The notes: a model not told the origin generated them from the letters alone. Positions 22,230-50,283 are shown, numbered from the stretch's first letter. The stretch is DNA of 64,000 bases from Bacteroidales bacterium (GCA_963668715.1 OY764960.1:3255423-3319422), one strand, 5' to 3'. A program made the numbers and translations.

Positions 22230-23576
22230 TTAAAACTCCAGAATAAACTGAGTCCTGATGTACGGTTCGGAGTTTACTCTTACTGAGCCGTTATGTTTAC
22301 TCATTATCTGCCTGACAACTGAAAGTCCTATACCTGATCCTTCCTTTCTTGTTGTGAAGAAAGGAATGAATATCTTATCTGTCAGATCAGGAGATATCCC
22401 TTTCCCGTTATCTGAAACGATAATGAATTTTTTGCCATTACTGCTTTCCCCGGCAGAAAGCTCTACTGTTGCACCGGGGATATCTTCAAGTGCATATATG
22501 GAATTTTGAACAAGGTTTATAAGAGCCTGGATGATTAGCTTTTCGTCCAGATTGATCTTCAAATCAGGCGGATTAATATCTGATATAACAAGGTTTATGT
22601 CTTTCTTTTGCCTGTCGGAAAGCAGATCGACCGTATCCTTAAATAAGACATCTACCGGTGTTTCACTTAAAACCGGCCCGGGGATCCTTGACAGCCTTTT
22701 ATATGATTCAACGAATTGAATAAGCCCCTTGCTACGTTTATCTATTGCACCAAGACCAGAAATCAGATCATTATACGTATCATTAGTCTTAAGACTTACA
22801 AAAGATCCGGATAACTTACCCGCGAGCCTGACGAGGGTTCCGCTGAGCGATTTTATAGGAGATACCGAATTTACTATCTCATGAGTAAGGACGCTTGTCA
22901 GGTTTTGCCATACCTTTATTTCTTCATCGCCCAGGACATTGCTTATGTCCTGAACAGATACCAGGTATATTTCACTGTTTCTTTTAATGAGTACTGTTTT
23001 ACGCGTTACAATACTTTTCATTTCGTTACGTATAACTGTCCTGAAGAGTGTGTCGGTATCGGGCTTAAGAGTATTTAAATGTCCGGAGAAACCATCGGCA
23101 AAACTGTCAAATCCCGTAATATTACTTACGTCGCCGGAACCAAGGATTTCCTTTGCAGAGCGGTTCACAAGATCAATTGCTCCTGAAGGCTCATACGACA
23201 GCAAACCTACGGATGCATTATCAAACAGGTATCTGAAATACAGATACTCTGACTCCCCGGAGGCTCTGATCTCATTTATTGAATTAATGATCTCCTTATA
23301 TTTTTCACCTAATATATCCCCTGATGATCTTTTCCCGGTAAAAACAGGAATAGTGAGATCAGGGTTCTTCAGGGTCAGGATAAAATTCATAAGATCCCTG
23401 TTGCTTCTGTTTACATATGAGGCAAATGATATTATGAATGTCAGCCATAAGAAAGCCGACGTGAACTTTGCTACTATGATATGGTCCTGCAATAAAGTCC
23501 ATATAAAGAGCATGCCCGATAATGCAATAAAGACTGAAAAAAGCAATACACGAAAAGTGAATTTATTGAATATCAT
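22230..23576 (-). CDS. sensor histidine kinase, two N-terminal TM helices with a minimal loop (intramembrane-type), PAS-like + HisKA + HATPase_c
   Basis: The TM pair is ...SGMLFIWTLL-QDH-IIVAKFTSAFLWLTFII.... The H-box is LTHEIVNSVSPI and the ATPase motifs are DNGKGI...GSGIGLS. It overlaps the upstream RR gene by 14 nt. Confidence 0.8.
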   Translation of the reverse strand: MIFNKFTFRVLLFSVFIALSGMLFIWTLLQDHIIVAKFTSAFLWLTFIISFASYVNRSNRDLMNFILTLKNPDLTIPVFTGKRSSGDILGEKYKEIINSINEIRASGESEYLYFRYLFDNASVGLLSYEPSGAIDLVNRSAKEILGSGDVSNITGFDSFADGFSGHLNTLKPDTDTLFRTVIRNEMKSIVTRKTVLIKRNSEIYLVSVQDISNVLGDEEIKVWQNLTSVLTHEIVNSVSPIKSLSGTLVRLAGKLSGSFVSLKTNDTYNDLISGLGAIDKRSKGLIQFVESYKRLSRIPGPVLSETPVDVLFKDTVDLLSDRQKKDINLVISDINPPDLKINLDEKLIIQALINLVQNSIYALEDIPGATVELSAGESSNGKKFIIVSDNGKGISPDLTDKIFIPFFTTRKEGSGIGLSVVRQIMSKHNGSVRVNSEPYIRTQFILEF

Positions 23577-24936
23577 ATTTAAGTATTTTGTTGTAAAGTG
23601 TTTTTCTGCTTATACCAAGTTCCTTACAGGCTCTTGATTGATTATAGTTATTGTTTTGCAGAGCCATTATTATCAGTTTTTTTTCATTATACTCCAGGTT
23701 AAGGATACTGGATTCGGTACGTGTTTTATGAGTGATGCCGTTAATGCATATATCTTCAGGACCAATATCACTGCCTTCAGATAAAATGACGGCTTTTTCA
23801 ATCATATGTTCCAGTTCACGTACATTCCCGGGATAGCTGTAATTCATCAGTGCTTTTAATCCTTTAGAGCTGAGGCTTAAAAAAGGTTTATTGTATTTTT
23901 TACCGTATTCGTTGAGAAACAGGGCAGCCAGAACAGGAATGTCATCGACTCTTTCCCTTAAAGGAGGTATGGTTATCTGAATAGTATTCAATCTGTAAAA
24001 CAGGTCTTCACGTAATAGTCCCATGGAAATCATTTCGGCAGGATTAGAATTGGTTGCCGAGATGAGCCTGATGTCTGTTTTAACAGGAATTGATGATCCC
24101 AGTCTTGTTATTTGCCTGCTTTGAAGAACCCTTAATAGTTTAGGCTGTATTCCCGGAGGCATGTTTCCTATCTCGTCAAGAAATAATGTTCCTCCTGAAG
24201 CTACCTCAATTTTTCCTGCCTTTTCTTCTTTAGCATCAGTGAAAGCCCCTTTAACATAGCCGAACATCTCACTTTCAAACAGATTTTCAGGTATAGCGCC
24301 TGAATCCACATCGACAAACAACTCACAGGATCTTTCGGAAAGCCTGTGTATTTCCCTGGCCAGCAGTTCCTTTCCTGTGCCGCTTTCTCCAAGTATAAGT
24401 ATGCTGGCATCTGTCGGAGCTACTTTTCTTATTGTTTTTATCAGTTGCTCCATGACCGCAGACACTCCAACGATTTTTTTAACTGGCTCTTCTATTCTCT
24501 TGTTGAGATGTAATTGTTTTATCTTTAGATTGTTAACTTCGAGTTTGGATTTTCTCAGACTATATGCTGAGTGTACAGTGGCAATAAGCCTGTCATCTTC
24601 CCAGGGCTTCTGGATAAAATCAGTCGCTCCTTCCTGCAGCGACCTTACTGCAAGCTCAACAGTCGCATAGGCTGTAAGCATAAGAATAATAGCATTGGGG
24701 TCTGTCCTGATGATCTCGTTCATCCAGAATATCCCCTCATTACCTGAATTTATCCCGGTAGAATAATTCATGTCGAGTATATATACATCGAATAATCCTG
24801 TTGATATCCGGTCATGTATATACTTAGGATCTGATAATGTTATTATCTCATTATAATGAGGTGAAAGCAATAACCTGAGAGCTGTTAATATATCCTCATT
24901 ATCATCAACAATTAATATCCTGGCTTCTTTTTTCAT
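23563..24936 (-). CDS. sigma54-dependent response regulator (receiver + AAA+ + Fis-type HTH; NtrC family)
   Basis: The receiver is ILIVDDNEDIL...DMNY. The AAA+ motifs are GESGTGKELLAREIH, GAFTDA and ESEMFGY. The C-terminal HTH is ACKELGISRKTLYNKI. Confidence 0.88.
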   Translation of the reverse strand: MKKEARILIVDDNEDILTALRLLLSPHYNEIITLSDPKYIHDRISTGLFDVYILDMNYSTGINSGNEGIFWMNEIIRTDPNAIILMLTAYATVELAVRSLQEGATDFIQKPWEDDRLIATVHSAYSLRKSKLEVNNLKIKQLHLNKRIEEPVKKIVGVSAVMEQLIKTIRKVAPTDASILILGESGTGKELLAREIHRLSERSCELFVDVDSGAIPENLFESEMFGYVKGAFTDAKEEKAGKIEVASGGTLFLDEIGNMPPGIQPKLLRVLQSRQITRLGSSIPVKTDIRLISATNSNPAEMISMGLLREDLFYRLNTIQITIPPLRERVDDIPVLAALFLNEYGKKYNKPFLSLSSKGLKALMNYSYPGNVRELEHMIEKAVILSEGSDIGPEDICINGITHKTRTESSILNLEYNEKKLIIMALQNNNYNQSRACKELGISRKTLYNKILKYDIQ

Positions 24937-25134
24937 CTGATTATTCTTAATTTTTAATCCCCTGCGCGTTCCGCTCCGGTCGTCGAAGTCATATTATGGC
25001 CGATGGCAGCGGCGGACGGTTCGTAATATCAAAAATAGTAAATGGGAAATAATTACACAATTAACATGGTAAAAAATACACATAAAGAAAATGTGTAAAT
25101 TGTTAAATAGCATCTATACAGCCATATAGTAAAA

Positions 25135-25150
25135 TGGCATTAAAATAGTA
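25135..25150 (+). promoter_or_regulatory. sigma54 -24/-12-like box upstream of permease 25196
   Basis: TGGCATTAAAATAGTA has GG then 10 nt then GT (consensus GC). It lies 45 nt before the ATG and next to a sigma54 activator gene. Confidence 0.35.
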
Positions 25151-25195
25151 TAGTATAAGCAAAGATTTATTAACTTAAATAATTTATTTGTTCTC

Positions 25196-27601
25196 ATGAA
25201 CAGGCTTTTTTTTAGAATATCGTTAAGGAATGCACAAAAGCAGGGTTACATAAGCATTATAAATCCGCTTGGGCTGGCTATAGGTTTTGCCGGTGCATTT
25301 ATACTGTTATTATATGTGTTTAATGAACTGGGATATGATTCTGATATCAAATCGTCTGACGGAGTATATCGTATTAATACTGAAAGCAGGCTTTTTAACC
25401 TTCAGTATGCCAGAACTCCTTTTGTATTAGGTACGGTACTTAAGGACGATCTAGGGCATATGATATTATTATCGAGAGTTTTTAATCTTAGTAAGTCAGG
25501 CATAAGAAAAGGGGAGCAAATGATAAAAGAAGATGGAATTTTTTGTGCAGAGAACCAGATATTTAAAATAATGAACCTTGAAATTGTCGCGGGCAATCCT
25601 GACGATTTACTGAACAGTCCTGACGATGCTGTCCTCACCAGAAATGCGGCAAAGAAATATTTCGGGGAAGAAATGCCTCTCGGTAAAACACTTGAAATAG
25701 AGAATAACGGGGATATATTTTATTTTCAGGTGAAAGGTATAATCAATAATATAAGGGAAAATTCAAGTTTCAGACCGGAGATTTTAGTCCCTGTTCAGCT
25801 TTCAATTGATCAGATGGACAAAATGGTAACGTCATCAAGCGAGGAGCCTCTTGGTGCTGATTATTACAGGAATAACTGGAACCTTTTCTTTTTTTATTCA
25901 ACATACCTTAAACTGGAACCCGGATTATCGGAAGATGACCTTCAGATGCATATCGATAGCTACGAAGGTAAACACTATAGTGAAGATCTTAGGCTGGGTT
26001 TTCATCTTCAGAAATATCGTGATATTTATTTCAATTCATCTCACCTGGTATCGGCTTATAACGGCGGCGATATCAAAACTGTTATTATCTATTCAATGGT
26101 AGCTTTTCTGCTTCTGTTAACAAGCTCTCTAAACTATATACTATTATCGACGGCCGGCCTGGTAAAAAGGAGGAAAGAAATTGCAGTTAAAATAGTTAGC
26201 GGAGCATCTCACAGATCAATAGTCAGGCAAACCATGATGGAAACAATAGGCCTCTCTTATATTGCTGCTTTAGCAGGATTGTCCATAGCTGAGATAGTTC
26301 TTCCCATGGTAAGTGATACACTTTTTGGTAAAAATATCTCAATTGAATACCTTAGAGACTGGCAGTTTACGGTTTCAGTACTTCTGATACCTCTTGCAGT
26401 TGGGTTGTTGTCAGGGATTTACCTTTCGGTCAGAATTACTTCTAAGGATGCCTTTACAGTCCTGACGCATACCGGTGATGAAAATAAGGGCAGCACAGGA
26501 TTTGTAACTGTCCTCAGTACTGTACAACTGATTATCTGTATGACGCTTATTGCATGCACAGGAGTTATTTACAGACAGATTCATTACTTCAGGAATACAG
26601 ACCCCGGCTTTGATATTAAAAATATTATTAGCATAGATTTCAGTGATGATGATATAAGAAAGAATTACGATGTTTTCAAAGACGAATTATTAAAACAGCA
26701 TGTAATAAAAAGTGTTTCCGGTGCAATGTGGTCTCCTCCGACGAGAAGTAATATGGTGATGAACCTGTCTAAAATTGATAACCCGGATGAAAAGGTAACA
26801 GTACAGGGTCTTATGGTCGATTATGATTTTGCCGGAACACTTGGGCTGAACCTGATAGAGGGTAGTGATTTTATTGAAACTGAATCCGGCTCAGGAGAAA
26901 GACTGATCATAAGCAGAAAAGCAATTAATGCACTTGGGATAAAGGGATCCCCTGTTGGGATAGAAACGGCATTTGGCAGAATAACAGGAGTAGTGGAGGA
27001 TTTTCATATTCATTCATTTCACAGTGAGGTGCCCCCGATGATTATTCAACTGACACCTGCAGGTGTGAGAACCATGCTGGTTCGTACCGAACCCGGAAAC
27101 ACTGAAGCTGCCATCAACAGGATTAATGAGATATGGGAAGAAATGCATTTTACCAAACCACCTGAATATAAACTGCTGAGTGATGCCCTTGACGATCTGT
27201 ACAGTGAAGAAAGGAGATTTGCCAGTATTCTGACCATATTTTGTGCTCTTACACTAATCGTTTCTGTTATGGGAATTTTAGGGATGGCAGTTTTAAATAC
27301 GAGAAATAAAACCAAGGAAGTAGGCATACGAAAAGTGCTTGGAGCGGAATCATCAGGATTGATGGGCAAATTTATGGGCAGATATGCATTAATGATCCTG
27401 ACTTCTGCTGCAATTGCTTTCCCTTTAGCCTGGTTGTTAATGATCAGATGGTTGGAGAACTTTGAGTATCACGATACTGTAAATATATTTGCTTTTGCCG
27501 GCTCTCTGCTGATAACGGTCATTGTTGTACTGTCATCTGTTGCAGCACAGATCATTAGGCTTGCCGATACAAATCCGGTCGACTCACTCAGATATGAATA
27601 G
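25196..27601 (+). CDS. double-FtsX / MacB-type ABC transporter permease (~800 aa)
   Basis: The N-terminal TM (INPLGLAIGFAGAFILLLYV) is followed by a large extracytoplasmic domain, an FtsX block, a second extracytoplasmic domain and a second FtsX block (GIRKVLGAESSGL...), ending ...PVDSLRYE. Confidence 0.85.
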   Translation: MNRLFFRISLRNAQKQGYISIINPLGLAIGFAGAFILLLYVFNELGYDSDIKSSDGVYRINTESRLFNLQYARTPFVLGTVLKDDLGHMILLSRVFNLSKSGIRKGEQMIKEDGIFCAENQIFKIMNLEIVAGNPDDLLNSPDDAVLTRNAAKKYFGEEMPLGKTLEIENNGDIFYFQVKGIINNIRENSSFRPEILVPVQLSIDQMDKMVTSSSEEPLGADYYRNNWNLFFFYSTYLKLEPGLSEDDLQMHIDSYEGKHYSEDLRLGFHLQKYRDIYFNSSHLVSAYNGGDIKTVIIYSMVAFLLLLTSSLNYILLSTAGLVKRRKEIAVKIVSGASHRSIVRQTMMETIGLSYIAALAGLSIAEIVLPMVSDTLFGKNISIEYLRDWQFTVSVLLIPLAVGLLSGIYLSVRITSKDAFTVLTHTGDENKGSTGFVTVLSTVQLIICMTLIACTGVIYRQIHYFRNTDPGFDIKNIISIDFSDDDIRKNYDVFKDELLKQHVIKSVSGAMWSPPTRSNMVMNLSKIDNPDEKVTVQGLMVDYDFAGTLGLNLIEGSDFIETESGSGERLIISRKAINALGIKGSPVGIETAFGRITGVVEDFHIHSFHSEVPPMIIQLTPAGVRTMLVRTEPGNTEAAINRINEIWEEMHFTKPPEYKLLSDALDDLYSEERRFASILTIFCALTLIVSVMGILGMAVLNTRNKTKEVGIRKVLGAESSGLMGKFMGRYALMILTSAAIAFPLAWLLMIRWLENFEYHDTVNIFAFAGSLLITVIVVLSSVAAQIIRLADTNPVDSLRYE

Positions 27602-27764
27602 ATAAACAGAGACGCTATTCTGAAATTTTGATTACCGTTAGTCAGCTCAGGCGTTTCTTTTTTTGAGATATTTTATCTCAGCTTAAATAGGTTTTTGTCG
27701 GATTTTACGACACTCTCTTTTGTGTTTTCGGATTTCTTTTCGTTTTTTGCAGTAAAGTAAGATT

Positions 27765-29138
27765 ATGGTCAAGAATGGAAAAGTACTGATTGTAGATGAT
27801 AATCGCGAATTGCTTTCAGCACTTAAAATATGTCTGGCACCTTATTTTTATGCAATCGACCTTTTGCACGATCCTAACCGTATACCTGAGTATATGAGTC
27901 AGGCCGTATACGACCTGATATTGCTGGATATGAACTTCAGTCGTGGTCAGACCACCGGAAATGAAGGGATCTTCTGGATGAACAGGATCAGGGAGATCAG
28001 CCCTTATTCAGGTATTGTCCTTATAACAGCTTACGGTGATGTTTCCCTGGCTGTAAAAGCAATGCGTGAAGGAGCTGTCGATTTTATCCTGAAGAGCTGG
28101 GATGAAAGTAAGATAATATCGACTATTCTGGCTTCATTAAAGATACAGGAATCTCAGAAAGAGATAAGATCGCTGAAAGAAAAAGGTTCACAACTGAAAA
28201 GTATAATTGATGACCAGCATAAGCTTTATTATGGCAGTTCATCTGCCATGAAAAATATAAAAAAGCTTATTGACAAAGTTGCGGGTACCGATGCCAATAT
28301 TTTGATACTGGGTGAAAATGGTACCGGCAAGGAGCTGGTCGCAAGAGAGATACACCGTCTCTCAAAAAGATCTGATGATATTTTTGTGAAGATTGACCTT
28401 GGGTCGGTTACGGAAAGCCTTTTCGAAAGTGAGTTATTCGGTTACCGTAAGGGTGCGTTTACCGACGCCAGGGATGATAAAGCGGGAAGGCTGGAAGTTG
28501 CATCGGGTGGTACCGTTTTTTTAGATGAAATAGGAAACCTGAGCCTTGATATGCAGACCAAATTATTAGGCACACTTCAAAATAAGGAAATTGTAAGAGT
28601 AGGTGATAATAACCCTGTTCCTGTGGATATAAGAATTGTATCGGCAACTAACAGCGACCTGCATGCTGCTGTTGAAGATTTGACATTCCGGGAAGATCTT
28701 TTCTACAGACTTAATACTATTATAATAAATCTTCCGCCTTTAAGAGAACGGAAGGAGGATATTATTTTCCTTACAGGATTATTCCTGCAGGAACTGAACA
28801 ATGAATATGGCCGTGATGTGAAGCTGACAAAAGAATCGGAACGATATCTTATCGATCATAGCTGGCCGGGTAATATAAGAGAGTTAAGGCATGTTATTGA
28901 AAAAGGGGTGATACTTGCCGAAAATGACAGGATAAGAGAATCGGATCTTACTACCGGTTCATCAGGCAGGAAGTTCAATAGTATGGGATCTTATAACCTG
29001 TCTGACAACGAAAAGATGATAATAATTTCAGCCCTTGAGAGTTTTAACTGGAACATCAGCAGGACTGCCAGGGAACTTGGTATTAACAGGTCTACACTTT
29101 ATGAGAAAATATCCAAATATGAAATCTCACAGGATTGA
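27765..29138 (+). CDS. sigma54-dependent response regulator (NtrC family), paralogue of 23563-24936
   Basis: Same architecture and length (457 aa): VLIVDDNRELL, GENGTGKELVAREIH, GAFTDA, ESELFGY, and HTH TARELGINRSTLYEKI. Confidence 0.88.
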   Translation: MVKNGKVLIVDDNRELLSALKICLAPYFYAIDLLHDPNRIPEYMSQAVYDLILLDMNFSRGQTTGNEGIFWMNRIREISPYSGIVLITAYGDVSLAVKAMREGAVDFILKSWDESKIISTILASLKIQESQKEIRSLKEKGSQLKSIIDDQHKLYYGSSSAMKNIKKLIDKVAGTDANILILGENGTGKELVAREIHRLSKRSDDIFVKIDLGSVTESLFESELFGYRKGAFTDARDDKAGRLEVASGGTVFLDEIGNLSLDMQTKLLGTLQNKEIVRVGDNNPVPVDIRIVSATNSDLHAAVEDLTFREDLFYRLNTIIINLPPLRERKEDIIFLTGLFLQELNNEYGRDVKLTKESERYLIDHSWPGNIRELRHVIEKGVILAENDRIRESDLTTGSSGRKFNSMGSYNLSDNEKMIIISALESFNWNISRTARELGINRSTLYEKISKYEISQD

Positions 29139-30498
29139 CCTGACAGTTCTCCTTCAGGTCGTGTTACTTGCTGTTACTCCTGCCTTATTTATATTAACGC
29201 TTGATATAGAGGCTCTTATAATAACCAGGATCACACTTGCTATTATCTGGCTGATTCAGATGGCGCTTCTTTACAGATATCTTAAAAGATCGGAAAACAG
29301 CCTGAGGCAGGCAGTTAAAATAATAAGCAGTGGGGATGAATCCCATTTTTTAAGGAACAGGCATTTATCAAGGGTTCATGAAGATGTCCTTGATGAGATT
29401 AACAATGCCATATCAGTATTCCGGGATCTGAAAATTGAGAACGAAGCTAATCTCCGTTTTTTTCAACAGGTTATGCAGCATGTGCCGGCCGGTGTTTTTG
29501 TGGTGAATTCTGACGAGACAATTGAATTTATTAACAGCTCGGCTAAAGACTTGTTCGGATCCGTCAACCTGAGGATACTGAAAGACCTTGATTCTGTAAA
29601 GAAGGGACTTACGTCATGGTTCAGGGATATAAAAGGAGCTCATAATGTTATGGATATCGATTTTCCTGACAGGTCGTATAAGATATCTGTTTCAGTAAGG
29701 CAAATAAGGGTTAGGGAAGAGACGCAGACAATATACTCATTTAAGGACATTAAAAAGGAGGTGGATATAAGGGAACTGGAGACCTGGCATAATATGCTCA
29801 GGATACTATCTCATGAGGTTGTTAATTCAGTAAGCCCGATTACTCTTTCTGCAATGGGTATGCAGAGGAATATTGCTGATTTGAAAGGTATTACACCTGA
29901 AAATGATGATTACAAAAGGATACTGTCCGAAATAGATACCGGGCTGTCAGCTATAAGCGAAAGGGGTAAAGGGCTTAATGAATTTGTCGAGTCGGTGCAG
30001 AGGCTTACCAGGATCCCTGAGCCTTCTGTCGGGCCAATAAGCCTGAGGCAGCTTGCAGGAGAATCAGTTGAAATAATGAAAACAAACCTCCGGGAAAATA
30101 ATATCAGGCTTGAAGAAGATTTGGCTGATATCAAAATATACTGTGATAAAAGATTAATAAGCCATGTTATGATCAATCTGGTGAAAAACAGTATTGAATC
30201 CTTTTCATCCCAAACAGATAAAACAATCAGGATATCCGGAAAAAAGACAGATGCCGTTATTATAATTCAGGTGGAAGATAATGGTCCGGGGATCCCCGGC
30301 AATATAAGGAACCAGGTATTCTCGCCATTTTTCAGTACAAAAAGAAGGGGATCAGGCCTCGGTTTAAGCTTTTCACGACAGGTGATGCAATTACACAAAG
30401 GTAACATAAATGTATGGTCGGAACCCGGAAAAACTATTTTTACCCTGACATTGCCTGTAAATCCTGATGCCGGAATTTCCGGCATCAGTGTCGTATAA
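29119..30498 (+). CDS. sensor histidine kinase (intramembrane-type), paralogue of 22230-23576
   Basis: The start is placed at MKSHRIDLTV, overlapping the RR stop by 20 nt; the ORF is open from 29035 inside the RR gene. The two TM helices are joined by DIEAL. The H-box is LSHEVVNSVSPI, with DNGPGI...GSGLGLS. Confidence 0.8.
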   Translation: MKSHRIDLTVLLQVVLLAVTPALFILTLDIEALIITRITLAIIWLIQMALLYRYLKRSENSLRQAVKIISSGDESHFLRNRHLSRVHEDVLDEINNAISVFRDLKIENEANLRFFQQVMQHVPAGVFVVNSDETIEFINSSAKDLFGSVNLRILKDLDSVKKGLTSWFRDIKGAHNVMDIDFPDRSYKISVSVRQIRVREETQTIYSFKDIKKEVDIRELETWHNMLRILSHEVVNSVSPITLSAMGMQRNIADLKGITPENDDYKRILSEIDTGLSAISERGKGLNEFVESVQRLTRIPEPSVGPISLRQLAGESVEIMKTNLRENNIRLEEDLADIKIYCDKRLISHVMINLVKNSIESFSSQTDKTIRISGKKTDAVIIIQVEDNGPGIPGNIRNQVFSPFFSTKRRGSGLGLSFSRQVMQLHKGNINVWSEPGKTIFTLTLPVNPDAGISGISVV

Positions 30499-30559
30499 AC
30501 CAACGGTTATGAATAATTTTTATATACGTAATATGCATATATACAGTAATTTATATAAT

Positions 30560-30575
30560 TGGCATATATATAGCA
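30560..30575 (+). promoter_or_regulatory. sigma54 -24/-12-like box upstream of permease 30606
   Basis: TGGCATATATATAGCA has GG-N10-GC spacing matching TGGCAC-N5-TTGCA. It lies 30 nt before the ATG. Confidence 0.5.
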
Positions 30576-30605
30576 GACGGTTGGTGAATATTAATTAACT
30601 GTATT

Positions 30606-32909
30606 ATGGGATCGTCTGCATTTTTAAGAAGATTTTTTACGCTTTTGAAAGAAAATATTCTATCTGTCGCAGGTTTATCATTAGGTATGATGATAACCGT
30701 TTTTTCAGTAACATATATCGTTTTTGAGTCATCATATGACCGGTTTCATAAGAATTCGGAAAGGATATGTCTTGTATCAACCCTTATAGAAATAGAGTCG
30801 GGCAATGAAGTTGTTATGAGCAGTTCTCATCATAATATGAAAGACTATATCGACTCTCATGTACCTCAGGTTGAGATGGCTTGCAGGATAAGGGACAGCA
30901 CAGATCCTCTGATAATTGACGATGTGGAATTCAGGAACCAAAAGGGACTGTTTGTCGATGAAGATTTTTTTTCAATTTTCAAATTCGGTATGTTGCTAGG
31001 TGAAGGGTCTGTGTTAGAAGATCCGGGCAGTATTATCCTGACCCGTGACCTGGCAGAAAAGTTATACGGAGATATAAATTGTCTGGGGGAGAATCTTCAG
31101 ATAAATGACAATATTTATACCGTCAGGGGAGTGGCGGAGACACCGCCGGGAAATACGAGCATCAGGTTTGAATACCTGATCCCTATGTCTGTCTTTCTGG
31201 GAACACTGGAGAGTTACAGTTCCATTAGTGTCGAGACATACATCTTAACTCCTGTTGCATATGACGATTATACGTCAGTTTCAGAATCTATAAATGGTTT
31301 TTATGAGGCTTATGATGTTAAAGGCAAAGACAGGTATAAAGTCAGTATTTCAAAACTGACTGATCAGTATCAGTATTATTATAAAACTTCAAAAAACTTT
31401 ATCCTGTTTGCCACGATATCCATACTGGCGTTGTTGGTGTCTGTTGTAAATTTCATTAACGCATTTGCGGCAGGTAGTGAGCTCAGGATCCGTGATACAG
31501 GTATCAGAAAGGCTATGGGAGCAACCAGGGTAATGCTTATGAGGGATATGCTTCTTACATCAGTCATCATATCATTGATATCGGCTTTGTTTGGGTTGAT
31601 TTTGTCTGAAATATTTATTGGTACTTTCAGGGAATTGTCAGGAGTAGATGTCAGGCAATACGGGCCGGGACTGTGGAAGATACAGGTATCCGTATTACTT
31701 ATTGCCGTTTTCACCGGTTTGCTGGCCGGAGCGTTTCCCGCGATCAGGTATTCATCTCCCAATGTGCTGGCGATGATAACAGGAAGGGGGCTGTTCAGGA
31801 ACAGGTCATTCACCCTGAGAAAAGTGCTGGTGCTTGTTCAATACATAATATCGGGAGGCCTCCTTATAAGCCTTTTTATTTTTTTCTATCAGATCAGATA
31901 CCTGAATAATAAATATCCGGGATTCGATGTTGAAAGCAGGATGCTTGTAAGAGTATCCGGGGATCTTGAATTTAAGTATGCAGCATATATCAGTGAACTG
32001 GAAAAGATCCCGGGCATAATTTCTGTCTCCGGGAATGGTTCCGAATTCGGAGGTACTGTTGGATTTGGCTTTAAACGTATTAATAGTGAAGAGGGCATGC
32101 CGGCAATGGGATATTTTGTTGAGGATGGGTTTTTCAGGACTTATGGTATAAAACTGATCAGGGGAAAAACATTTGAAGAAACGAGCGGAAGGGATTCAAG
32201 CAAAGTATTGATAGATGCTTCAACATCTGAAATATTGGGTTACAATGACCCTGTCGGTGAACGTTTCATATTATCCGGCAGGGAAGTTGAAATAATAGGC
32301 CTTGTTGAAGATGCCGATCTGATAGCTTTAAAAGGAGAAAGAGAGCCGTTTGTTTATACCCAGTTCTATGATCTATGTGCCGAACTTATAGTGAACTATG
32401 AAGGAGATCCGTCCGTAATTGCCGACAGAATAGCAGAAAAGATGACTGAATTTGATCCTGATTTTGAGTATAACTACAGGATGCTTGAAGAAGCCAGGGG
32501 TGAATTGTATAAAAAAGAAGCAAACCAGGTTAAAATAGTCCTTCTTGTAGGTTTGGTGGCTGTATTAATGACAATAGTCGGAGCTTATTCCCTGGCATCC
32601 TATATGGCAGAACGCAGGGCAAAGCAGGTCAGTATAAGAAAAGTGATGGGAGCTACGGTAGCTGAGGTAATACAATTATCTGTGAAAGAAATGACATGGA
32701 TGATAATAATTGCTTTTATTATTGCTTCTCCTTTAGCATATTTTGTCAGTATCAAATGGTTGCAGAATTTTACACAGAAAATATCCATTGGTCCTTTACC
32801 ATTTATACTGGCGCTGGTGGTTCTTTCTGTTCTTATATTAATAACAGTATATTTCAAGGAAAGAAAGGCTGCGTTGGCCAATCCTGTTAAGCATCTTCGT
32901 CAGGAGTAG
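30606..32909 (+). CDS. double-FtsX / MacB-type ABC transporter permease
   Basis: Same architecture as 25196-27601. The FtsX blocks are GIRKAMGATRVML and SIRKVMGATVAEV. It ends ...PVKHLRQE. Confidence 0.85.
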   Translation: MGSSAFLRRFFTLLKENILSVAGLSLGMMITVFSVTYIVFESSYDRFHKNSERICLVSTLIEIESGNEVVMSSSHHNMKDYIDSHVPQVEMACRIRDSTDPLIIDDVEFRNQKGLFVDEDFFSIFKFGMLLGEGSVLEDPGSIILTRDLAEKLYGDINCLGENLQINDNIYTVRGVAETPPGNTSIRFEYLIPMSVFLGTLESYSSISVETYILTPVAYDDYTSVSESINGFYEAYDVKGKDRYKVSISKLTDQYQYYYKTSKNFILFATISILALLVSVVNFINAFAAGSELRIRDTGIRKAMGATRVMLMRDMLLTSVIISLISALFGLILSEIFIGTFRELSGVDVRQYGPGLWKIQVSVLLIAVFTGLLAGAFPAIRYSSPNVLAMITGRGLFRNRSFTLRKVLVLVQYIISGGLLISLFIFFYQIRYLNNKYPGFDVESRMLVRVSGDLEFKYAAYISELEKIPGIISVSGNGSEFGGTVGFGFKRINSEEGMPAMGYFVEDGFFRTYGIKLIRGKTFEETSGRDSSKVLIDASTSEILGYNDPVGERFILSGREVEIIGLVEDADLIALKGEREPFVYTQFYDLCAELIVNYEGDPSVIADRIAEKMTEFDPDFEYNYRMLEEARGELYKKEANQVKIVLLVGLVAVLMTIVGAYSLASYMAERRAKQVSIRKVMGATVAEVIQLSVKEMTWMIIIAFIIASPLAYFVSIKWLQNFTQKISIGPLPFILALVVLSVLILITVYFKERKAALANPVKHLRQE

Positions 32910-33670: not shown

Positions 33671-36600
33671 TTACTTTTCATTGATTTTATTGCTGTTATT
33701 ATCAGAAAGTTGCATGAATATAAATTCCTTTTTGTCCTTTCTTTCTTTCTTTTTCTCTTCACGGTTTGATAAGGCGCCATACAATACAGGCACTACAATC
33801 AGGGTTATCATTGTTGATACTAATAGTCCGCCAACAACTACGATACCCATAGGCCTCCATAATTCAGAGCCATCTCCCTGGCTTAATACCATTGGAACCA
33901 TGGCAAGTATTGTGGTAATGGCTGTCATCAGTACAGGTCTTAAACGTGCCATACCGGATAGAGCGATCGCTTCGTTAAGTTTGTGTCCGCGGCTTCGCAT
34001 AAGATTGATATAATCGACAAGCACGATACCGTTTTTCACAACTATTCCTACAAGCATAATAGCACCGAGTGCCCCGATCATATCCAATGTGGTCCCGGTA
34101 ATAAAAAGGGCTAATATTACTCCGCTAAATGCGAAGGGGACAGACATCATAATGATAAACGGTTTTTTAAACGACTCAAACTGGGATGCCATTACGATAT
34201 ATACAAGTAAAATAATCATCAATGCCAGGGTACCCATGTCTCCGAATGTTTCCTGTTGATCTTCATAGTCGCCTGCCAAACGTATACTAACACCCTGAGG
34301 AATATCTATATCAGATATAGCACTTTCTATTTCCGTAGCCAGTTCCCCGAGTGAAGTGCGGTAAGGCATTGTTTTTACTGTTACAATACGCTGACGGCTT
34401 TTGCGTTCAATAGCAGGCAGCGACCAGAATTCATCCACTGATCCTACTTCACGTAGCTTTATTTCCTTTCCTGTTGCTGTCGGGATTGTCAGGTTTTCTA
34501 CCTCACTAATCGAATTTCTGTTTTCTTCCTTTATGCGGACGATAATAGGATATTCATCGCCTTCTTCTTTAAGATATCCTGCCATCATTCCGCTTACACG
34601 GTTTTGTACATAAGCAGATACTGATGCTGATGTCATACCCAGCATAGCCAGTTTTTCCTTATCGACTGATACCTTAAGCTCTGCCCTGTCCCTGTCGCGG
34701 CTTATCATAACATTACGTGCTCCTCCGACCTTATCCTTAATGGTATTCTGAATCGTCTCAGCCATTACACTTGTAGCATCAAAATCATAGCCGTAAATTT
34801 CAACGTCAACTGTAGAAATACCACCGCCGGGCCCCATCCCTGAAGGCTGTGCCTGGAAAGTGATTATTTCAGGATATTTCGCCATTTCCTGTCGTATTAC
34901 TTCTGCAATTTCAAGAATTGAACGTTCCCGCTCATATTTCTTACTACATACTATATTCATTTCTATTTTGTTGTTGGAGGTAGAAGAGAACATAGCTGCA
35001 ATACCTGCATCTTCTGTGGAGCCGGCTGTAGTGCTTAACATTCTTATCTCAGGTGCCAGTTCCATAAAACGGCTCTCCAGCCTGCGGGCGGTTTTTAGTG
35101 TTTCTTCAATTCGCATGCCTGTGTTAAGTTCAGCGCTTACAGATAACCGTCCACTGTCGCTTTGTTGCATAAAATCGGTTCCTATATAGCCCAGTATAAA
35201 CGGCAGCAAAGAAGCGACAAAGAATATCACTGCAATACTCATGGTGACAGCCTTATGATTGAGACAGAGTCTTAAAACATTGGCGTACCATTTATCAATT
35301 TTGTCCAGAAGAGCAACTATGCTTTTTTCATACCAGTTCTTTTTGGACCTTACTTCCACGAGATTACCTGATTCGTCGACCTTAATCTTTTTGGATTTTA
35401 ATAATTTGGAAGCCAGCATAGGGGTAAGAGAAATTGCCACTACTGTTGAGGTGCTTACAACAATAGCAACGATCCATCCTAATTCCTTAAACATAACGCC
35501 GGCCATACCTTTCAGAAAGGTAAGAGGTACAAACACTGCAACTATAACCAGGGTAGTGGCAATAACAGCAGTCCATACTTCATTGGTCGCGTATTTGGCC
35601 GCTTCACGGGGCGAAGATCCCCGTTCTACGTGCCTGGTGATATTTTCCAGAACGACAATGGCATCGTCCACCACCATTCCTATAGCCACAGTCAGCGAGC
35701 TAAGTGATATGATGTTCAGCGAACTGCCGGTAATCGCCAGGTAGATAAATGAAACGATCAGAGCAATAGGGATAGTAACGGCAATGATAAGGGTTGCCCG
35801 CCACCTGCCCAGGAAGAAAAGCACTACTATTACTACAAATAAAAGAGCATATAGAATGGAGTTTTGAAGGCTTTTGATAGAATTAACAATATTATCGGAT
35901 GAGTCATATATTACTTCAATATTGACGTCAGCGGGAAGAGTATTTTTAATCTTCTCCATTTCTTTTTTTACCTCACGGCAAATTTCTACCGAGTTGGCTC
36001 CTGATTGCTTTGAGATTACTATACGAACCCCGTCCTGCCCGTTTGTTTTTTCATCTAATGACAAGTCCTTTATTGTATCACGAACTGTAGCAATATCACG
36101 GAGAAAGACCTTTTGCCCGTCGGCAGTAGTGGCTACCACAAGGTCATTTAATTCAGAGCTTTCCTTAAATTCGGTGCGTGTCTGCAACTGGTATTGTTCC
36201 TTATCCATTTTAACTGTCCCTGAAGACAGGTTCAGGTTGTTATTGCTTATTACGCTCCCTACCGTTTCCAGAGGCAGATTGAAAGCGTCCAGTTTTTCCT
36301 GATCGAGGTCTACATAGATATAGCGTTCCGGTGATCCTGAAAGGGATATATTTCCTATCCCGTCTACACGGTTAAGCTCTGGAATAATCTCATTATTCAG
36401 CATTTTGTCAAGGCCTGCATAACTTTCCCTGGCAGTAACGGCATACTGAATGATAGGCATGGAGCTGGAACTGAGTTTAAAGATAATCGGGGTGGAGCAA
36501 CCACTTGGCAGGTTATCTTTGGTCATATCTATGAATGAGCGCACATCATTGGTTACTTCATCGATATTAATCCCCCATTCCATCTCCAGGGCAATGACTG

Positions 36601-36865
36601 ATATGTTATCCCTTGATGTGGATGTCAGTTCTTTAAGTCCGTCTACTGAGTTAAGACTATTCTCAAGTAACCGGGTGACATTAGTTTCAATCTCACTTGC
36701 ATTGGCTCCGGGATAGGAAGTCATCACGGTAATAAACGGGGGATCCATCTCCGGGAACTGGTCAATAGGGAGTCTCTGATATGAATAAATTCCTATGATC
36801 AGAACAGCCACAAATATCAGTAATGTTGTGACAGGTTTTTCTATTGCTGTCTTATATATACTCAT
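33671..36865 (-). CDS. RND efflux transporter permease (AcrB/HAE1-type, 1064 aa)
   Basis: Full-length 12-TM/2-porter-domain layout. Family text is present: AVDDAIVVLENI, SQFESFKKPFIIMMSVPFAF, VVKNGIVLVDYIN. Confidence 0.9.
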   Translation of the reverse strand: MSIYKTAIEKPVTTLLIFVAVLIIGIYSYQRLPIDQFPEMDPPFITVMTSYPGANASEIETNVTRLLENSLNSVDGLKELTSTSRDNISVIALEMEWGINIDEVTNDVRSFIDMTKDNLPSGCSTPIIFKLSSSSMPIIQYAVTARESYAGLDKMLNNEIIPELNRVDGIGNISLSGSPERYIYVDLDQEKLDAFNLPLETVGSVISNNNLNLSSGTVKMDKEQYQLQTRTEFKESSELNDLVVATTADGQKVFLRDIATVRDTIKDLSLDEKTNGQDGVRIVISKQSGANSVEICREVKKEMEKIKNTLPADVNIEVIYDSSDNIVNSIKSLQNSILYALLFVVIVVLFFLGRWRATLIIAVTIPIALIVSFIYLAITGSSLNIISLSSLTVAIGMVVDDAIVVLENITRHVERGSSPREAAKYATNEVWTAVIATTLVIVAVFVPLTFLKGMAGVMFKELGWIVAIVVSTSTVVAISLTPMLASKLLKSKKIKVDESGNLVEVRSKKNWYEKSIVALLDKIDKWYANVLRLCLNHKAVTMSIAVIFFVASLLPFILGYIGTDFMQQSDSGRLSVSAELNTGMRIEETLKTARRLESRFMELAPEIRMLSTTAGSTEDAGIAAMFSSTSNNKIEMNIVCSKKYERERSILEIAEVIRQEMAKYPEIITFQAQPSGMGPGGGISTVDVEIYGYDFDATSVMAETIQNTIKDKVGGARNVMISRDRDRAELKVSVDKEKLAMLGMTSASVSAYVQNRVSGMMAGYLKEEGDEYPIIVRIKEENRNSISEVENLTIPTATGKEIKLREVGSVDEFWSLPAIERKSRQRIVTVKTMPYRTSLGELATEIESAISDIDIPQGVSIRLAGDYEDQQETFGDMGTLALMIILLVYIVMASQFESFKKPFIIMMSVPFAFSGVILALFITGTTLDMIGALGAIMLVGIVVKNGIVLVDYINLMRSRGHKLNEAIALSGMARLRPVLMTAITTILAMVPMVLSQGDGSELWRPMGIVVVGGLLVSTMITLIVVPVLYGALSNREEKKKERKDKKEFIFMQLSDNNSNKINEK

Positions 36866-36878
36866 ACTATTTATCTTT

Positions 36879-37904
36879 TTATTCTACCACGTTCATTTTC
36901 ATCCCATCTATCAGCTTTTCCTGCCCGACTGTTACAAGCAGGTCGCCGCTTGTTAATTTGTCGGAGACGATCTCTACCATTTCGTCATAACGCTGACCGA
37001 GGCTAACACTTATTCGCCTGGCTACCCCGGTTTCATTGATAAAGACATAACGTTCGTTCGAGCCTGTAAGTCTCAGTACGGATTGATATGGTACCATAAA
37101 GGCATTGATCTCGCCCAGTTCAAGAGTGGTACGTATAAACATTCCGGGACGTAATAACTCAGCTTGATTAGGAATCTTTAGCCTGGCTTTAAAAGTATGA
37201 GTTGCTTCGTCAATAATGGGATATACAATTTCGATGATAGCAGGAAAGGTTTGTTCCGGATAGATGTCTGAGCGGATATTCAGTTTCATTCCTTCTTCAA
37301 CAAGAGGAAAATATGTTTCGGGAATACTAATGATAGCTTTAAGATGTCTTATCTGTGTAAGTGTCAGTATCGGATTTCCGCTGAACAGTTCACCGTCTTC
37401 GTAATTTTTAGCTGTAATAACACCGGGCATGTCTGCTTTAACAAAGGTGTTCTGGGTTAAGAAGCTCAGGTTTTCTTTGGTTTGTTTATAGCTCAGCTCG
37501 GTCTGGTCATAAGTCTGCTGTGAAACGGTCTCTGTTTCATAAAGCTCCCTGATGCGTTCATATTCAATACTAAGATTTGTATAAGCCAGTTTTGTTGTTT
37601 TATACTGGTTTTGATCCATGCGAACGAGTGTGTCGCCCGGGTTAATGCGGGAGCCAATGTCTACGTAGATGTGTTCTATATTACCTGAAACAGAAGGAGC
37701 AATATTTTTTGTTTCATATCCTTTCAGTGTGGCAGAAAGGTCTATCTTTTGTGCTATTTTCTGTATCTTCAGAGGCGTTACTTCAACTGTTGCAACAGAC
37801 ATTAAACCCATTGCTCCGGGATCAGGTTGGTCTGATTTTGAAACACAGCCTGTTATACTTAAAATCAGACTGTAAAACAATATTATATATAATACTTTTT
37901 TCAT
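36879..37904 (-). CDS. RND efflux periplasmic adaptor (membrane fusion) lipoprotein
   Basis: Lipobox (LILSITGC) present. It has a biotinyl/lipoyl-like hairpin (GNIEHIYVDIGSRINPGDTLVRMD) and a beta-barrel C-terminal part. It sits upstream of the RND gene. Confidence 0.85.
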   Translation of the reverse strand: MKKVLYIILFYSLILSITGCVSKSDQPDPGAMGLMSVATVEVTPLKIQKIAQKIDLSATLKGYETKNIAPSVSGNIEHIYVDIGSRINPGDTLVRMDQNQYKTTKLAYTNLSIEYERIRELYETETVSQQTYDQTELSYKQTKENLSFLTQNTFVKADMPGVITAKNYEDGELFSGNPILTLTQIRHLKAIISIPETYFPLVEEGMKLNIRSDIYPEQTFPAIIEIVYPIIDEATHTFKARLKIPNQAELLRPGMFIRTTLELGEINAFMVPYQSVLRLTGSNERYVFINETGVARRISVSLGQRYDEMVEIVSDKLTSGDLLVTVGQEKLIDGMKMNVVE

Positions 37905-37919
37905 GGTCTTATTTTTGTT

Positions 37920-39278
37920 CTATTTATTATCGTTATTTAGTAATTCTTCTAATTGTAACTGTGCCTCTACCAGATCCATCAATGATTGTACATAATTATT
38001 TTGAGCGTTTAGTAAATTAGTCCCCGAATCAGTTACATCGAGACTTGAAGCAATACCTTTTTCGTATTTTCTTGTAATATTGCTGAAGACATCCCGGGCA
38101 ACCTCCGTATTCTTTTTCTGTACTTCAAAACTCTCATAGGCTGAGCTTAGATTGAAACATAACTGACGGTGCTGGATAAGCAGCGATTCTTTGGTGTCAG
38201 CAAGAGTATTCATTTGTTGTTGATAGTCTAATTTTGCTTCCTGTACTGCCTTGTAACGGCTGCCGCTTGAAAAGATCGGAATACTTAAAGTCAGCCCCAC
38301 CATATTCGGAGGTGTCATATTCATAGTTGCTTCATCACTGAAATATTTTTTTGCGGAGTACTGGTGGTAACCGTTAATAGTAGGAGCATAAGCCCACTTC
38401 TTTATGTCAACCTGTTTCTGCGCAAGTACAATATTTTCCATTAAAAGCCGGTAATCGAGATTCTTATCCATGATAAAATCATAGGATAGCAACGATAATG
38501 TTTTATCAATATTTAAAAGCTCTTCGATTGACTGTGTTAACTTAATTTCCTTATCGGCGTCAAAACCCAACTGAAGCCTTAGCGAGTTATAAAGCATTTC
38601 CAGCGACCTGTCGATTGAGTTACAGTTGGCTTCCATAGAGGCTACCTGTACGGCAATCTGGTTAGCTTCGGTTTCTTCTGTAACACCTGCTTTTACCATC
38701 TGTAATGTATGCTGCAATAATTCATTAAGATTATCCAGGCTTCTTTTTGTCAGATCAGACGTTTCTTCCATAACCAGGGTAGAGTAGTATAACGATTTTA
38801 CCTGTTGTATCAGTTGGAGCTCGGATTGCTCATATGTCAGATCAGCCATTTTAGATGAAATTTTTTCCATCTGGATACCTATAACCTGAGAGGCGCTTAC
38901 TGATACAGACGTCGTTAATGACAGTGTTCCGTACGGTGGCATGGAAATATTGAAACCTGGCATTTCCATTTTGTAACCCATCATGTTGGCATAATCGACC
39001 GTTGCATTTATCTGAGGCAGAATGGATGCAATAGCCTGCCAGCGACTGGCTTCTGTTTTTTGAATATCTATGGAGGCATTTTTTAACTGGCGATTATGCT
39101 CCAGTGCATACTCCTGTGCCTCCTCCATAGTAAAGCTTATTTCCTCCTGAGAGAAAATATCTGTGTTTAGGCATAATATTGAGAGCAAAATTATAAGGAT
39201 GTATTTCATAAACCTGTTTATTTTAATCATATAATTAAGTGCCTTTTTTTGTAAGTCGGACGCAAATGTCCGGAGCAT
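37920..39278 (-). CDS. TolC-family outer-membrane efflux protein
   Basis: Two OEP repeats with characteristic coiled-coil text. The signal peptide begins at the internal MKYILIILLSILCL, so the likely true start is 39209. Confidence 0.8.
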   Translation of the reverse strand: MLRTFASDLQKKALNYMIKINRFMKYILIILLSILCLNTDIFSQEEISFTMEEAQEYALEHNRQLKNASIDIQKTEASRWQAIASILPQINATVDYANMMGYKMEMPGFNISMPPYGTLSLTTSVSVSASQVIGIQMEKISSKMADLTYEQSELQLIQQVKSLYYSTLVMEETSDLTKRSLDNLNELLQHTLQMVKAGVTEETEANQIAVQVASMEANCNSIDRSLEMLYNSLRLQLGFDADKEIKLTQSIEELLNIDKTLSLLSYDFIMDKNLDYRLLMENIVLAQKQVDIKKWAYAPTINGYHQYSAKKYFSDEATMNMTPPNMVGLTLSIPIFSSGSRYKAVQEAKLDYQQQMNTLADTKESLLIQHRQLCFNLSSAYESFEVQKKNTEVARDVFSNITRKYEKGIASSLDVTDSGTNLLNAQNNYVQSLMDLVEAQLQLEELLNNDNK

Positions 39279-40497: not shown

Positions 40498-41241
40498 ATG
40501 GAAAAGAATAAATACAACTGTATAATCATTGATGATGAATATCTTGCACGAAAGCTGATTGCCGACTATGTCTCAAAGATACATCATCTGAACCTTGCCG
40601 GTTGTTTCGACAGTCCTATAAATGCTATTGATACAATAACTAACGGAAGCATTGATGTTATCTTTACCGATATCGAAATGTCGGATATGACAGGTATAGA
40701 TTTTATAAAAAATCTCTCGATCCATAACAGACCTATAGTGGTATTTATCACAGCTTACCCTCAGTATGCCGTTCAGGGCTTTGAAATAGATGCTGTTGAA
40801 TACCTGTTAAAACCCGTTTCGTTCCCAAGGTTCGTCAAGGCAGTTAATAAAGTTACCAATATCCTGAAGATCAGAGATCAGCTTATCTCGTTCAGAAACA
40901 ATAAATGGCAGTCAGAAGATGTAAGTAGCGATAAGGATTATATTATTGTTAAAACCGAAAGAAGAATTGTAAAGCTCCTCTATAGCGAAATATATTTTAT
41001 TGAGGGAGCCTTGGAATATGTAACTTTTCAGACCGTAAACAGGCGGATTATGGGCCTTTTTTCTCTTAAGAAACTCGAAGAAGAATTGCCCGGTGACAGG
41101 TTCATGAGGATACATAAGTCATATATAGTTGCCCTGGATAAGATCAGCGAGATCAAGGGTAACCAGGTCCAGGTCGGGCAATGGACAATAAATGTAAGCA
41201 AGGCCATGAAATCAAAATTGCTTAAATCATTCGGAAGTTAA
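40498..41241 (+). CDS. LytTR-family response regulator
   Basis: The start directly abuts the kinase stop (TAAATG). It has a receiver (CIIIDDEYLARKL...DIEMSDMTG) and a LytTR domain (FMRIHKSYIVALDKI). Confidence 0.85.
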   Translation: MEKNKYNCIIIDDEYLARKLIADYVSKIHHLNLAGCFDSPINAIDTITNGSIDVIFTDIEMSDMTGIDFIKNLSIHNRPIVVFITAYPQYAVQGFEIDAVEYLLKPVSFPRFVKAVNKVTNILKIRDQLISFRNNKWQSEDVSSDKDYIIVKTERRIVKLLYSEIYFIEGALEYVTFQTVNRRIMGLFSLKKLEEELPGDRFMRIHKSYIVALDKISEIKGNQVQVGQWTINVSKAMKSKLLKSFGS

Positions 41242-50130: not shown

Positions 50131-50283
50131 ATTTGTAATAATTAAATGACTATTTATATGAAGCAAAGGAAAAGAAATAGTCATACGGGACTGTAACGCG
50201 AAAAGGTCCTTTTGTTTAATGTAACGGCGGAAATAAATCCGGTAGATACTGTGTTTAGCCGGGTCCGCCGGGAATAAAAATAT

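Follow-up and report, generated by a model that had tools for sequence, protein, structure and literature searches.

The pumps built on MacB and FtsX make up the type VII ABC superfamily, together with LolCDE and YbbAP, and the reported regulators of MacAB (e.g. PhoPQ) are, to our knowledge, not sigma-54-dependent. In Firmicutes, transporter-assisted sensing is established for the Bce systems, whose permease, BceB, has 10 transmembrane (TM) helices and a single large extracellular domain, located between TM7 and TM8. Here we describe paralogous modules in a 64-kb stretch of DNA from a Bacteroidales bacterium (GCA_963668715.1, OY764960.1:3255423-3319422; the whole stretch is referred to as the window), in which a histidine kinase (HK) without a periplasmic loop and a response regulator (RR) of the NtrC type are encoded beside a duplicated FtsX/MacB permease. 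From sequence evidence, each module is probably (at a rough probability of 0.75) a dedicated two-component system (TCS) switch for a MacB-type ABC exporter. The modules belong to a cassette, conserved over several phyla, whose sigma-54 TCS almost certainly switches on a MacB-type pump; this is partly new, the link between promoter type and permease having been published in part.

That link comes from an in silico survey (PLoS One 2025, PMC12316311), which reported an enrichment of sigma-54 promoters ahead of genes for COG0577 FtsX-like permeases (in Bacteroidia, Opitutia and gamma-Proteobacteria) and described it as the first such evidence. The survey does not connect the permeases to a dedicated TCS and does not mention efflux-partner genes, and nothing was seen there on a loop-less kinase family, on conservation of the module or on an ATPase-less form. 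The original prediction, made from the window sequence alone, had held the whole architecture to be undescribed; this stands for the pairing with a dedicated TCS, of which no account was found in the literature, and not for the association of sigma-54 with FtsX permeases.

Results

Gene organization of the modules

The genes of the modules, as obtained from open reading frame (ORF) calls and Pfam searches, are as follows, in window coordinates.

HK1: 22230-23576 (-), ORF for a kinase with a two-TM hairpin, HAMP-like linker, divergent PAS, DHp and HATPase_c (Pfam); H-box THEIVNSVSPI
RR1: 23563-24936 (-), NtrC-type sigma-54 enhancer-binding RR with receiver (REC), AAA+ and HTH_8 domains and a GAFTDA loop
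PERM1: 25196-27601 (+), duplicated MacB-type permease, (MacB_PCD + FtsX) x2, 8 TM helices
RR2: 27765-29138 (+), NtrC-type sigma-54 enhancer-binding RR with GAFTDA and ESELFGY
HK2: 29119-30498 (+), kinase with a two-TM hairpin (3-residue turn), HAMP-like linker, PAS, DHp and catalytic (CA) domains; PAS_8 and HATPase_c in Pfam
PERM2: 30606-32909 (+), duplicated MacB-type permease, 8 TM helices (Pfam)
PERM3: 60990-63344 (-), duplicated MacB-type permease; the mechanical ORF begins at TTG 63386, the likely start is ATG 63344
HK3: 63847-64000 (-), C terminus of a third family kinase, truncated by the window edge, with its RR off-window
PERM0: 1-793 (+), fourth double-FtsX permease, of which the C-terminal part is present; upstream context off-window

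The window thus holds three copies of the cassette, each with a kinase and a sigma-54-dependent RR beside a MacB-type permease, the third copy being partial. The coordinates of the first six genes were those originally predicted, as were the overlaps of 14 nt between RR1 and HK1 and of 20 nt between RR2 and HK2; of the predicted third set, PERM3 (with its probable start moved to ATG 63344) and the kinase C terminus lie within the window, and the RR does not. Identity between paralogs is 29% for HK1/HK2, 49% for RR1/RR2 and 26-28% for the permeases, and the C terminus of HK3 is 53-55% identical to those of HK1 and HK2; the window paralogs are old duplicates, and the modules form a diversified paralogous family, as had been proposed. 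PERM0 had been described as decayed. Its reading frame is indeed broken by an in-frame TAG at 377-379 (between ...YRFMDD and FNEMY...), but this is the sole one and the rest is well conserved; the TAG reflects either an error in sequencing or a nonsense mutation of recent date.

Linkage of permease and two-component system in related loci

For comparison with other genomes, a profile search with the kinase family was carried out on one genome per species, and 80 loci were kept with 10-kb flanks (L001-L080). ORFs in these loci were labelled using hidden Markov models (HMMs) built from the window proteins, together with an ABC-signature test. Most of the loci are from Bacteroidota; some are from metagenome-assembled genomes (MAGs) that bear the labels Latescibacterota, Zixibacteria, Acidobacteriota, KSB1, Cloacimonadota, Glassbacteria, Kryptonia, Opitutales and Deferribacteres. 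An NtrC-type RR precedes the kinase in 74 of the 80 loci, and a divergent double-FtsX permease operon faces 31 of the 57 RR-HK pairs for which at least 3 kb of upstream sequence was available. As an internal control, the two sides of the pair were compared: 32/52 loci have a permease within 6 kb on the upstream side of the RR, and 1/56 have one within 6 kb downstream of the HK (p=1.7e-12), so that co-localisation above background, which the original prediction had left to a neighbourhood check, was borne out.

An ABC ATPase (~230 aa) is encoded in 20 of the 31 divergent permease operons and is missing from 11. Proteins of ~418 and ~450 aa also recur there and were identified as HlyD-type adaptors and TolC-like outer-membrane efflux proteins (OEPs); those of ~230 aa are ABC_tran proteins. 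The common cassette, found across several phyla, is thus a TCS divergent from genes for a TolC-like outer-membrane factor (OMF), an HlyD protein, an ABC ATPase and one or more double-FtsX permeases, which make up a MacAB-TolC-like tripartite pump. The ATPase-less form occurs only in records labelled Bacteroidota, with the exception of one 'Thiohalospira' MAG contig whose gene-length pattern closely resembles that of a Bacteroidales locus. Since an ABC ATPase, an HlyD adaptor and a TolC-like protein are encoded alongside in the commoner form, the permease-only modules of the window are a reduced derivative of a widespread cassette, most likely one that borrows its ATPase, and not the self-contained units that they had been taken for.

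Linkage is also kept among the closest relatives of the window modules. Orthologs of HK2 (62% identical) stand in the order RR-HK-permease, as in the window, with permeases 59-60% identical to PERM2 and ~25% identical to PERM1 and PERM3. The PERM1 ortholog in L086 (40%) is divergent from an RR-HK pair, the kinase of which shares 40% identity with HK1, and a second HK1-like kinase, in L083, is 45% identical. In the three closest metagenome relatives of PERM1 (40-41%), the divergent HK-RR pair is kept in 3/3.

About 45% of the kinase-family loci are without an adjacent permease. No conserved alternative target was found in these, the neighbours being heterogeneous (PhoH, nitroreductase, M28 peptidase, glycosyltransferase and others); in L009 and L038, a MacB-type ATPase-permease operon lies a few kb off, and the ATPase gene in L038 has the promoter box described below. 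Most permeases of the wider family belong to tandem arrays, 3-6 paralogs long, at one end of which a lone ATPase gene is often found, and others come after a small ORF of ~110 aa; other regulatory contexts exist for the same permease superfamily. Among the metagenome loci, L094, L099, L104, L119, L127, L129 and others contain arrays of 4-6 double-FtsX paralogs with at most one ATPase gene, and the same set shows repeated pairs of a small ORF (~110 aa) and a ~870-aa permease, reminiscent of ADOP genes.

Sigma-54-type promoters and a candidate enhancer

The following elements were located upstream of the permease genes of the window.

PERM1 box: TGGCATTAAAATAGTA, 25135-25150 (+), 45 nt before the ATG, sigma-54 -24/-12-like
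PERM2 box: TGGCATATATATAGCA, 30560-30575 (+), 30 nt before the ATG, sigma-54 -24/-12-like
PERM3 box: TGGCAAATAAATTGGA, 63370-63385 (-), 25 nt before ATG 63344, fits the family motif; absent from the original prediction
Candidate enhancer (upstream activating sequence) of module 1: 25045-25082, GAAATAATTAC and a second half-site AAATACACA, ~85 nt upstream of the -24 element

The first two boxes are present at the distances predicted, 45 and 30 nt before the ATG, and their reality rests on comparative data and not on counts within the window, where the box pattern gave 2 matches against 0.99 expected (not significant) and canonical TGGCA-N6-TTGC with one mismatch allowed gave 20 against 15, at background. 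The third, with T-T-G-G at -12 as in L001, L006, L032, L046 and L069, was taken into account in assigning the start of PERM3, which is likely ATG 63344 because the box sits 25 nt before that codon.

When related loci were examined, a strict GG-N10-GC pattern (GC at -12) proved patchy and was rejected; the actual -12 element is T-N-G-(C/G/T). A relaxed pattern was obtained by listing the sequence that follows TGGYA upstream of the divergent operons and was then run against controls, for which the remaining genes of these loci, if 170 aa or longer, were scanned with the identical pattern. The consistent element in the divergent operons is TGGCAY-N5-T-N-G, usually 40-70 nt ahead of the start codon. 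It precedes 26 of 41 first genes of permease/ATPase operons and 18 of 786 other genes (p=4e-27), and several of these 18 'control' matches fall at internal genes for a permease or an ATPase. When the target regions were read on the opposite strand, it was found in 0/41.

The boxes are also kept in orthologous loci, where the intergenic regions have otherwise diverged, a conservation on which the original prediction had staked its claim. The PERM1 box aligns with TGGCATCTGGTTTGT / TGGCACCCCGATTGA and the PERM2 box with TGGCACAAATATAGT (L081) and TGGCACAAATATGGT (L083). In the orthologous modules, the box (TGGCACAAATATAGT, TGGCACAAATATGGT, TGGCATCTGGTTTGT) precedes the permease nearest to the TCS and was not found upstream of the RR and HK genes, save for one weak match at the L081 kinase. 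Because the box is common to modules whose RRs are only 49% identical, and recurs across phyla, it is presumably a sigma-factor element and not an RR-specific operator. Sigma-54 -24/-12 promoters have been shown to be active in Flavobacterium psychrophilum by reporter mutagenesis (PMC9723704), and the sigma-54 wiring proposed here is well supported by comparative sequence evidence.

Phylogenetic footprinting of the module-1 intergenic region (window, L086, L087, L088 and L089) left two conserved islands, the box and a palindrome, in AT-rich, diverged DNA. The palindrome, GTAAT-A-ATTAC, reads TGTGTAATAATTACTCA in the orthologs and GAAATAATTACACA in the window (at ~25045-25059), and a second half-site, ATTAC-CA-like, lies at 25074-25082. 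Palindrome and box together correspond to the standard sigma-54 enhancer-promoter layout, and the palindrome is a candidate binding site for RR1.

Repeats were seen near the other two promoters. A GCAGTCC 7-nt tandem repeat (~30 copies, with an 82-nt higher-order period) occupies 63499-63707, and a short GACTGAA repeat lies at 63789-63820; both fall between the HK3 stop codon and the PERM3 box, i.e. in the expected enhancer zone, and the GCAGTCC array was found nowhere else in the window and 166 fetched loci. It is possible that changes in repeat length shift the enhancer-promoter spacing and lead to phase variation of PERM3. An inverted repeat, GATGCCGGAAATTCCGGCATC, at 30465-30490 overlaps the last HK2 codons just upstream of the PERM2 promoter region and could be a terminator between RR2-HK2 and PERM2 or a piece of a regulatory site.

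Regulator and kinase families

Both regulators were confirmed as receiver, AAA+ and helix-turn-helix (HTH) proteins carrying GAFTDA, as predicted: Pfam returned Response_reg, Sigma54_activat (217-221 bits), AAA_lid_14 and HTH_8 for RR1 and RR2. The fifth residue of the loop that contacts sigma-54, Gly in GAFTGA, is Asp in 76 of 77 family RRs, and GAFTDA itself is found in 67 of 77. Both GAFTDA and GAYTDA are listed as activation-compatible variants in enhancer-binding proteins of Desulfovibrio vulgaris with defined regulons (PMC4641369). The best NCBIfam match was PrsR-like, at 369-390 bits against a cutoff of 502.6, with AtoC and ZraR likewise below cutoff; the RR family is without a name, because every curated NCBIfam model falls short of its cutoff. 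Markers of the RR family across L001-L080 are the Asp in the contact loop and an ILLDMNF receiver motif.

HK1 and HK2 each open with two hydrophobic N-terminal helices joined by a minimal loop, as judged by hydropathy, and an alignment of 33 kinase-family sequences has zero insertions between the two helices. In an AlphaFold2 model of HK2 (mean pLDDT 81), TM1 (residues 8-27) is followed by a 3-residue turn and by TM2 from residue 31, which runs on as a cytoplasmic helix to residue 71; a connector and a second long helix (85-120) come next, followed by a PAS fold (125-210), the DHp domain (212-297) and the catalytic domain. Pfam places HATPase_c at the end of both kinases, and a PAS domain was detectable in HK2. 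The kinase is an inner-membrane hairpin anchor with no periplasmic domain, after which come a HAMP-like helix pair, PAS, DHp and catalytic domains; hydropathy, homolog alignment and model agree in this with the loop-less topology first proposed.

When the kinase profile was run against solved structures, ThkA, ZraS, FixL chimeras and NtrB ranked first, and BceS (8g3a) was matched through its CA domain only (E=1.5e-9). Homologs in the databases bear generic or 'NtrY-like' labels only. An NtrY/NtrX identity was considered and rejected: NtrX scored 277-283 bits against a cutoff of 600, the kinase has only two TM helices and the NtrY model was not among the top NCBIfam matches of the kinases.

Permeases and the source of the ATPase

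The reading frames of PERM1, PERM2 and PERM3 are intact and encode 767-801 aa. In both PERM1 and PERM2, Pfam found MacB_PCD and FtsX in two stretches each, and the permeases have 8 predicted TM helices arranged as (1+3)x2 with two periplasmic domains of ~230-250 residues each. The nearest solved structures to PERM2 were MacB chains (5lil, 5gko and 5nik), a P. gingivalis-type periplasmic domain entry (3is6) and YtrF; BceB was absent among its Protein Data Bank (PDB) matches. In NCBIfam, the permeases come nearest to ADOP (TIGR03434), with 223.5, 249.6 and 222.8 bits against a cutoff of 622.3.

The original prediction had stated that no ABC ATPase gene is present anywhere in the window. This was contradicted by two fused exporters, with TM and nucleotide-binding domains (NBDs) in one chain, at 50284-52011 (-) and 52132-53898 (-), which carry Walker A and LSGGE motifs; a stand-alone ATPase of the MacB/LolD type was not found in the 64-kb window. 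The two exporter genes adjoin a TonB-dependent receptor gene (47902-50184).

From established MacB structures, we take the cytoplasmic motif K-E-[IV]-G-[IV]-R-K-x-x-G-A to be the coupling helix on which the MacB NBD docks. In the C-terminal half of the protein, this motif is intact in 14/14 of the ATPase-less, TCS-linked permeases; the window permeases retain it there too, and it is most likely that they still make use of an ATPase. Arrays with one ATPase gene and many permeases make sharing of an ATPase look normal for this permease family, and the two observations together support supply of the ATPase in trans. For the window permeases, the gene for this ATPase most likely lies at another site of the genome, and genes for an adaptor and an outer-membrane partner may do so as well.

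Neighbouring efflux genes

A tripartite efflux operon of the resistance-nodulation-division (RND) type lies downstream of the second module, all on the (-) strand: an OEP gene (37920-39278), an HlyD-type membrane fusion protein gene (36879-37904) and an AcrB-like gene (33671-36865). It is divergent from genes for a LytS-type His_kinase (39466-40497) and a LytTR regulator (40498-41241). A similar LytS/LytTR pair is found in L081 directly upstream of a double-FtsX permease. TCS-paired efflux genes cluster in this region of the window.

Discussion

Co-localisation, box enrichment and conservation in orthologs all support the original proposal that the adjacent TCS has the permease as its sigma-54-dependent output. 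By analogy with the families concerned, the kinase would phosphorylate its RR, the phosphorylated RR would bind the upstream enhancer and the RR ATPase would open the sigma-54 promoter of the permease gene, with permease being made on induction only. Our best guess for the input is a membrane- or envelope-associated cue acting through the hairpin/HAMP/PAS unit.

Several observations weigh against reading each module as a dedicated switch for an exporter. Among 80 metagenome loci centred on relatives of PERM1, a TCS is present in only ~6, so that TCS control extends to a subset of these permeases. The box pattern was relaxed after the target regions had been inspected, albeit with controls that used the identical pattern and with a core that is the canonical -24 element; 15 of the 41 target operons are without it, some of them maybe owing to mis-called start codons or operons, and the -12 element is often TAGT, TCGT or TTGG and not the canonical TTGC. 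Genes for an ATPase, an adaptor and an OMF are absent from the window modules, and no partner can be named. Lastly, the coupling motif in the N-terminal half passes a strict regular expression in 5/14 ATPase-less and 19/26 ATPase-linked permeases (p=0.04), in a small sample drawn from L001-L080 plus PERM1 and PERM2 of the window and with an outcome that depends on the expression used; this difference may reflect asymmetric docking of the ATPase or relaxed constraint.

The alternative that survives best, although we consider it unlikely, is a Bce-like model in which the kinase cannot sense alone and forms a membrane complex with the adjacent permease; the latter would detect the substrate, or its own transport activity, and pass this on to the kinase, and would be co-sensor and output at once. 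The kinase family lacks a periplasmic domain throughout, and its hairpin has recurrent polar and aromatic positions (T, W, Q, Y), with a conservation of 27% compared with 29% for PAS/HAMP. HK and permease have been inherited as a pair across genera (HK 62% with permease 59-60%, HK 40-45% with permease 40%, paralogs at ~25%), and the link to a MacB-type transporter spans several phyla; linkage alone, however, predicts such co-inheritance. The cytoplasmic PAS domain could itself be the sensor, the kinase is nearest to ThkA, ZraS, FixL and NtrB, with BceS reached through the CA domain only, and the permease is MacB-like and not BceB-like. The ~45% of kinase-family loci that have no adjacent permease, and heterogeneous neighbours instead, are also hard to accommodate. 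A more specific form of this model, in which the ATPase-less permeases would be dedicated co-sensors complexed with the loop-less kinases, as a sigma-54-wired analogue of Bce flux sensing that evolved independently and spread through Bacteroidota and related phyla, seems to us slightly more doubtful still. If it were true, each paralogous module would recognise a different envelope-active compound, and the expanded 'orphan permease' families of Bacteroidota would in part be a sensory repertoire.

It is improbable that the ATPase-less double-FtsX proteins are not transporters at all, being instead NBD-free periplasmic scaffolds, mechanotransmission devices or decaying remnants of pumps. The window modules do lack a MacB-type ATPase, adaptor and OMF, PERM0 has its nonsense codon, and ATPase-less members less often have an intact coupling motif in their N half; against this, PERM1-3 and their orthologs at 40-60% identity are intact, which implies purifying selection, the C-half docking motif persists in all 14 and the arrays of several permeases with one ATPase show sharing to be normal in the family. 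Purely incidental adjacency, with the RRs controlling unlinked genes and the TGGCA boxes being chance matches or sites of another factor, would fit the window box count, which is not above chance, and the departure of the -12 element from TTGC, but is strongly disfavoured by the comparative data and very improbable, given the strong and strand-specific co-localisation and box enrichment the retention of the box in diverged orthologous intergenic regions and its steady position ~40-70 nt before the start codon.

Read as switches for MacB-type exporters, the modules bear on a group of proteins, the double-FtsX 'orphan' permeases, that is greatly expanded in Bacteroidota and Acidobacteria and that the papers found still describe as unknown in function and regulation (PMC3914696). 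A definable subset of these would be under a dedicated TCS with a recognisable sigma-54 promoter and a candidate enhancer, and the boxes give a handle for finding the inducers, and hence the substrates, of orphan permeases. Known roles of sigma-54 in these phyla would be extended to inducible MacB-type efflux. The modules also provide a natural test case for whether transporter-assisted sensing has arisen independently with another kinase, RR and sigma factor.

As for earlier literature, no experimental RpoN-regulon study involving these pumps in Bacteroidota was found, and Bacteroidetes, efflux, FtsX and related terms do not occur in the main text of Francke et al. 2011 (PMC3162934). HaeSR of P. 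gingivalis (PMC3764172) was considered as a related system and set aside, its 25-kDa RR being too small for the NtrC type and NtrC never being mentioned; a paper on the iron stimulon of Bacteroidetes, followed as a lead, offered gene lists only.

Comparison with known systems

The modules share with MacAB-TolC permeases built of MacB_PCD and FtsX, with MacB chains as their nearest solved relatives, and in related loci the operons add genes for a TolC-like OEP, for an HlyD adaptor and for an ABC ATPase that is a protein of its own. They differ in that the cassette permease is a fused duplicate, a single chain taking the place of the MacB dimer or the LolC/LolE pair, in that the NBD is never fused to it and in their control by a sigma-54 TCS.

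ADOP proteins (TIGR03434) are likewise duplicated FtsX permeases of ~800 aa with many paralogs, often without an adjacent ATPase, and the window, with four permease paralogs in 64 kb and no MacB-type ATPase, shows the same trait; the window permeases nevertheless score far below the 622.3-bit cutoff and are relatives, not members. ADOP-like genes in the fetched loci typically follow a ~110-aa ORF, possibly for a PadR-type regulator, or stand in tandem arrays, and not beside a TCS. Clusters of ADOP-like genes were seen in the flavobacterium Psychroflexus torquis in 2014, with their function given as unknown (PMC3914696).

With ZraSR, AtoSC and NtrBC, the modules have in common an RR composed of REC, AAA+ and a Fis-type HTH, a kinase whose DHp and CA domains are nearest to those of ZraS, AtoS, NtrB and ThkA and, from the DNA sequence, a -24/-12 promoter at the target with an enhancer upstream. 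Unlike ZraS and AtoS, the kinase has no periplasmic domain; the contact loop is GAFTDA, and the target is a MacB-type exporter.

The resemblance to BceRS-BceAB, from which the original prediction took its description of the modules as a Bce counterpart, lies in a two-TM kinase with nearly no loop that is encoded beside an FtsX-superfamily permease and in that permease being the target of the RR. Of five testable Bce features, the loop-less kinase was the only one found and the other four failed, and the description holds to that extent alone. The RR is of the NtrC/sigma-54 type and not of the OmpR type; the kinase bears a PAS domain and belongs with the ZraS/NtrB/ThkA group, not the BceS lineage; and the permease is MacB-type, with 8 TM helices and two periplasmic domains, as compared with the 10 TM helices and one extracellular domain of BceB. 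The ATPase, moreover, is often absent from the cassette, whose full form is a tripartite Gram-negative pump.

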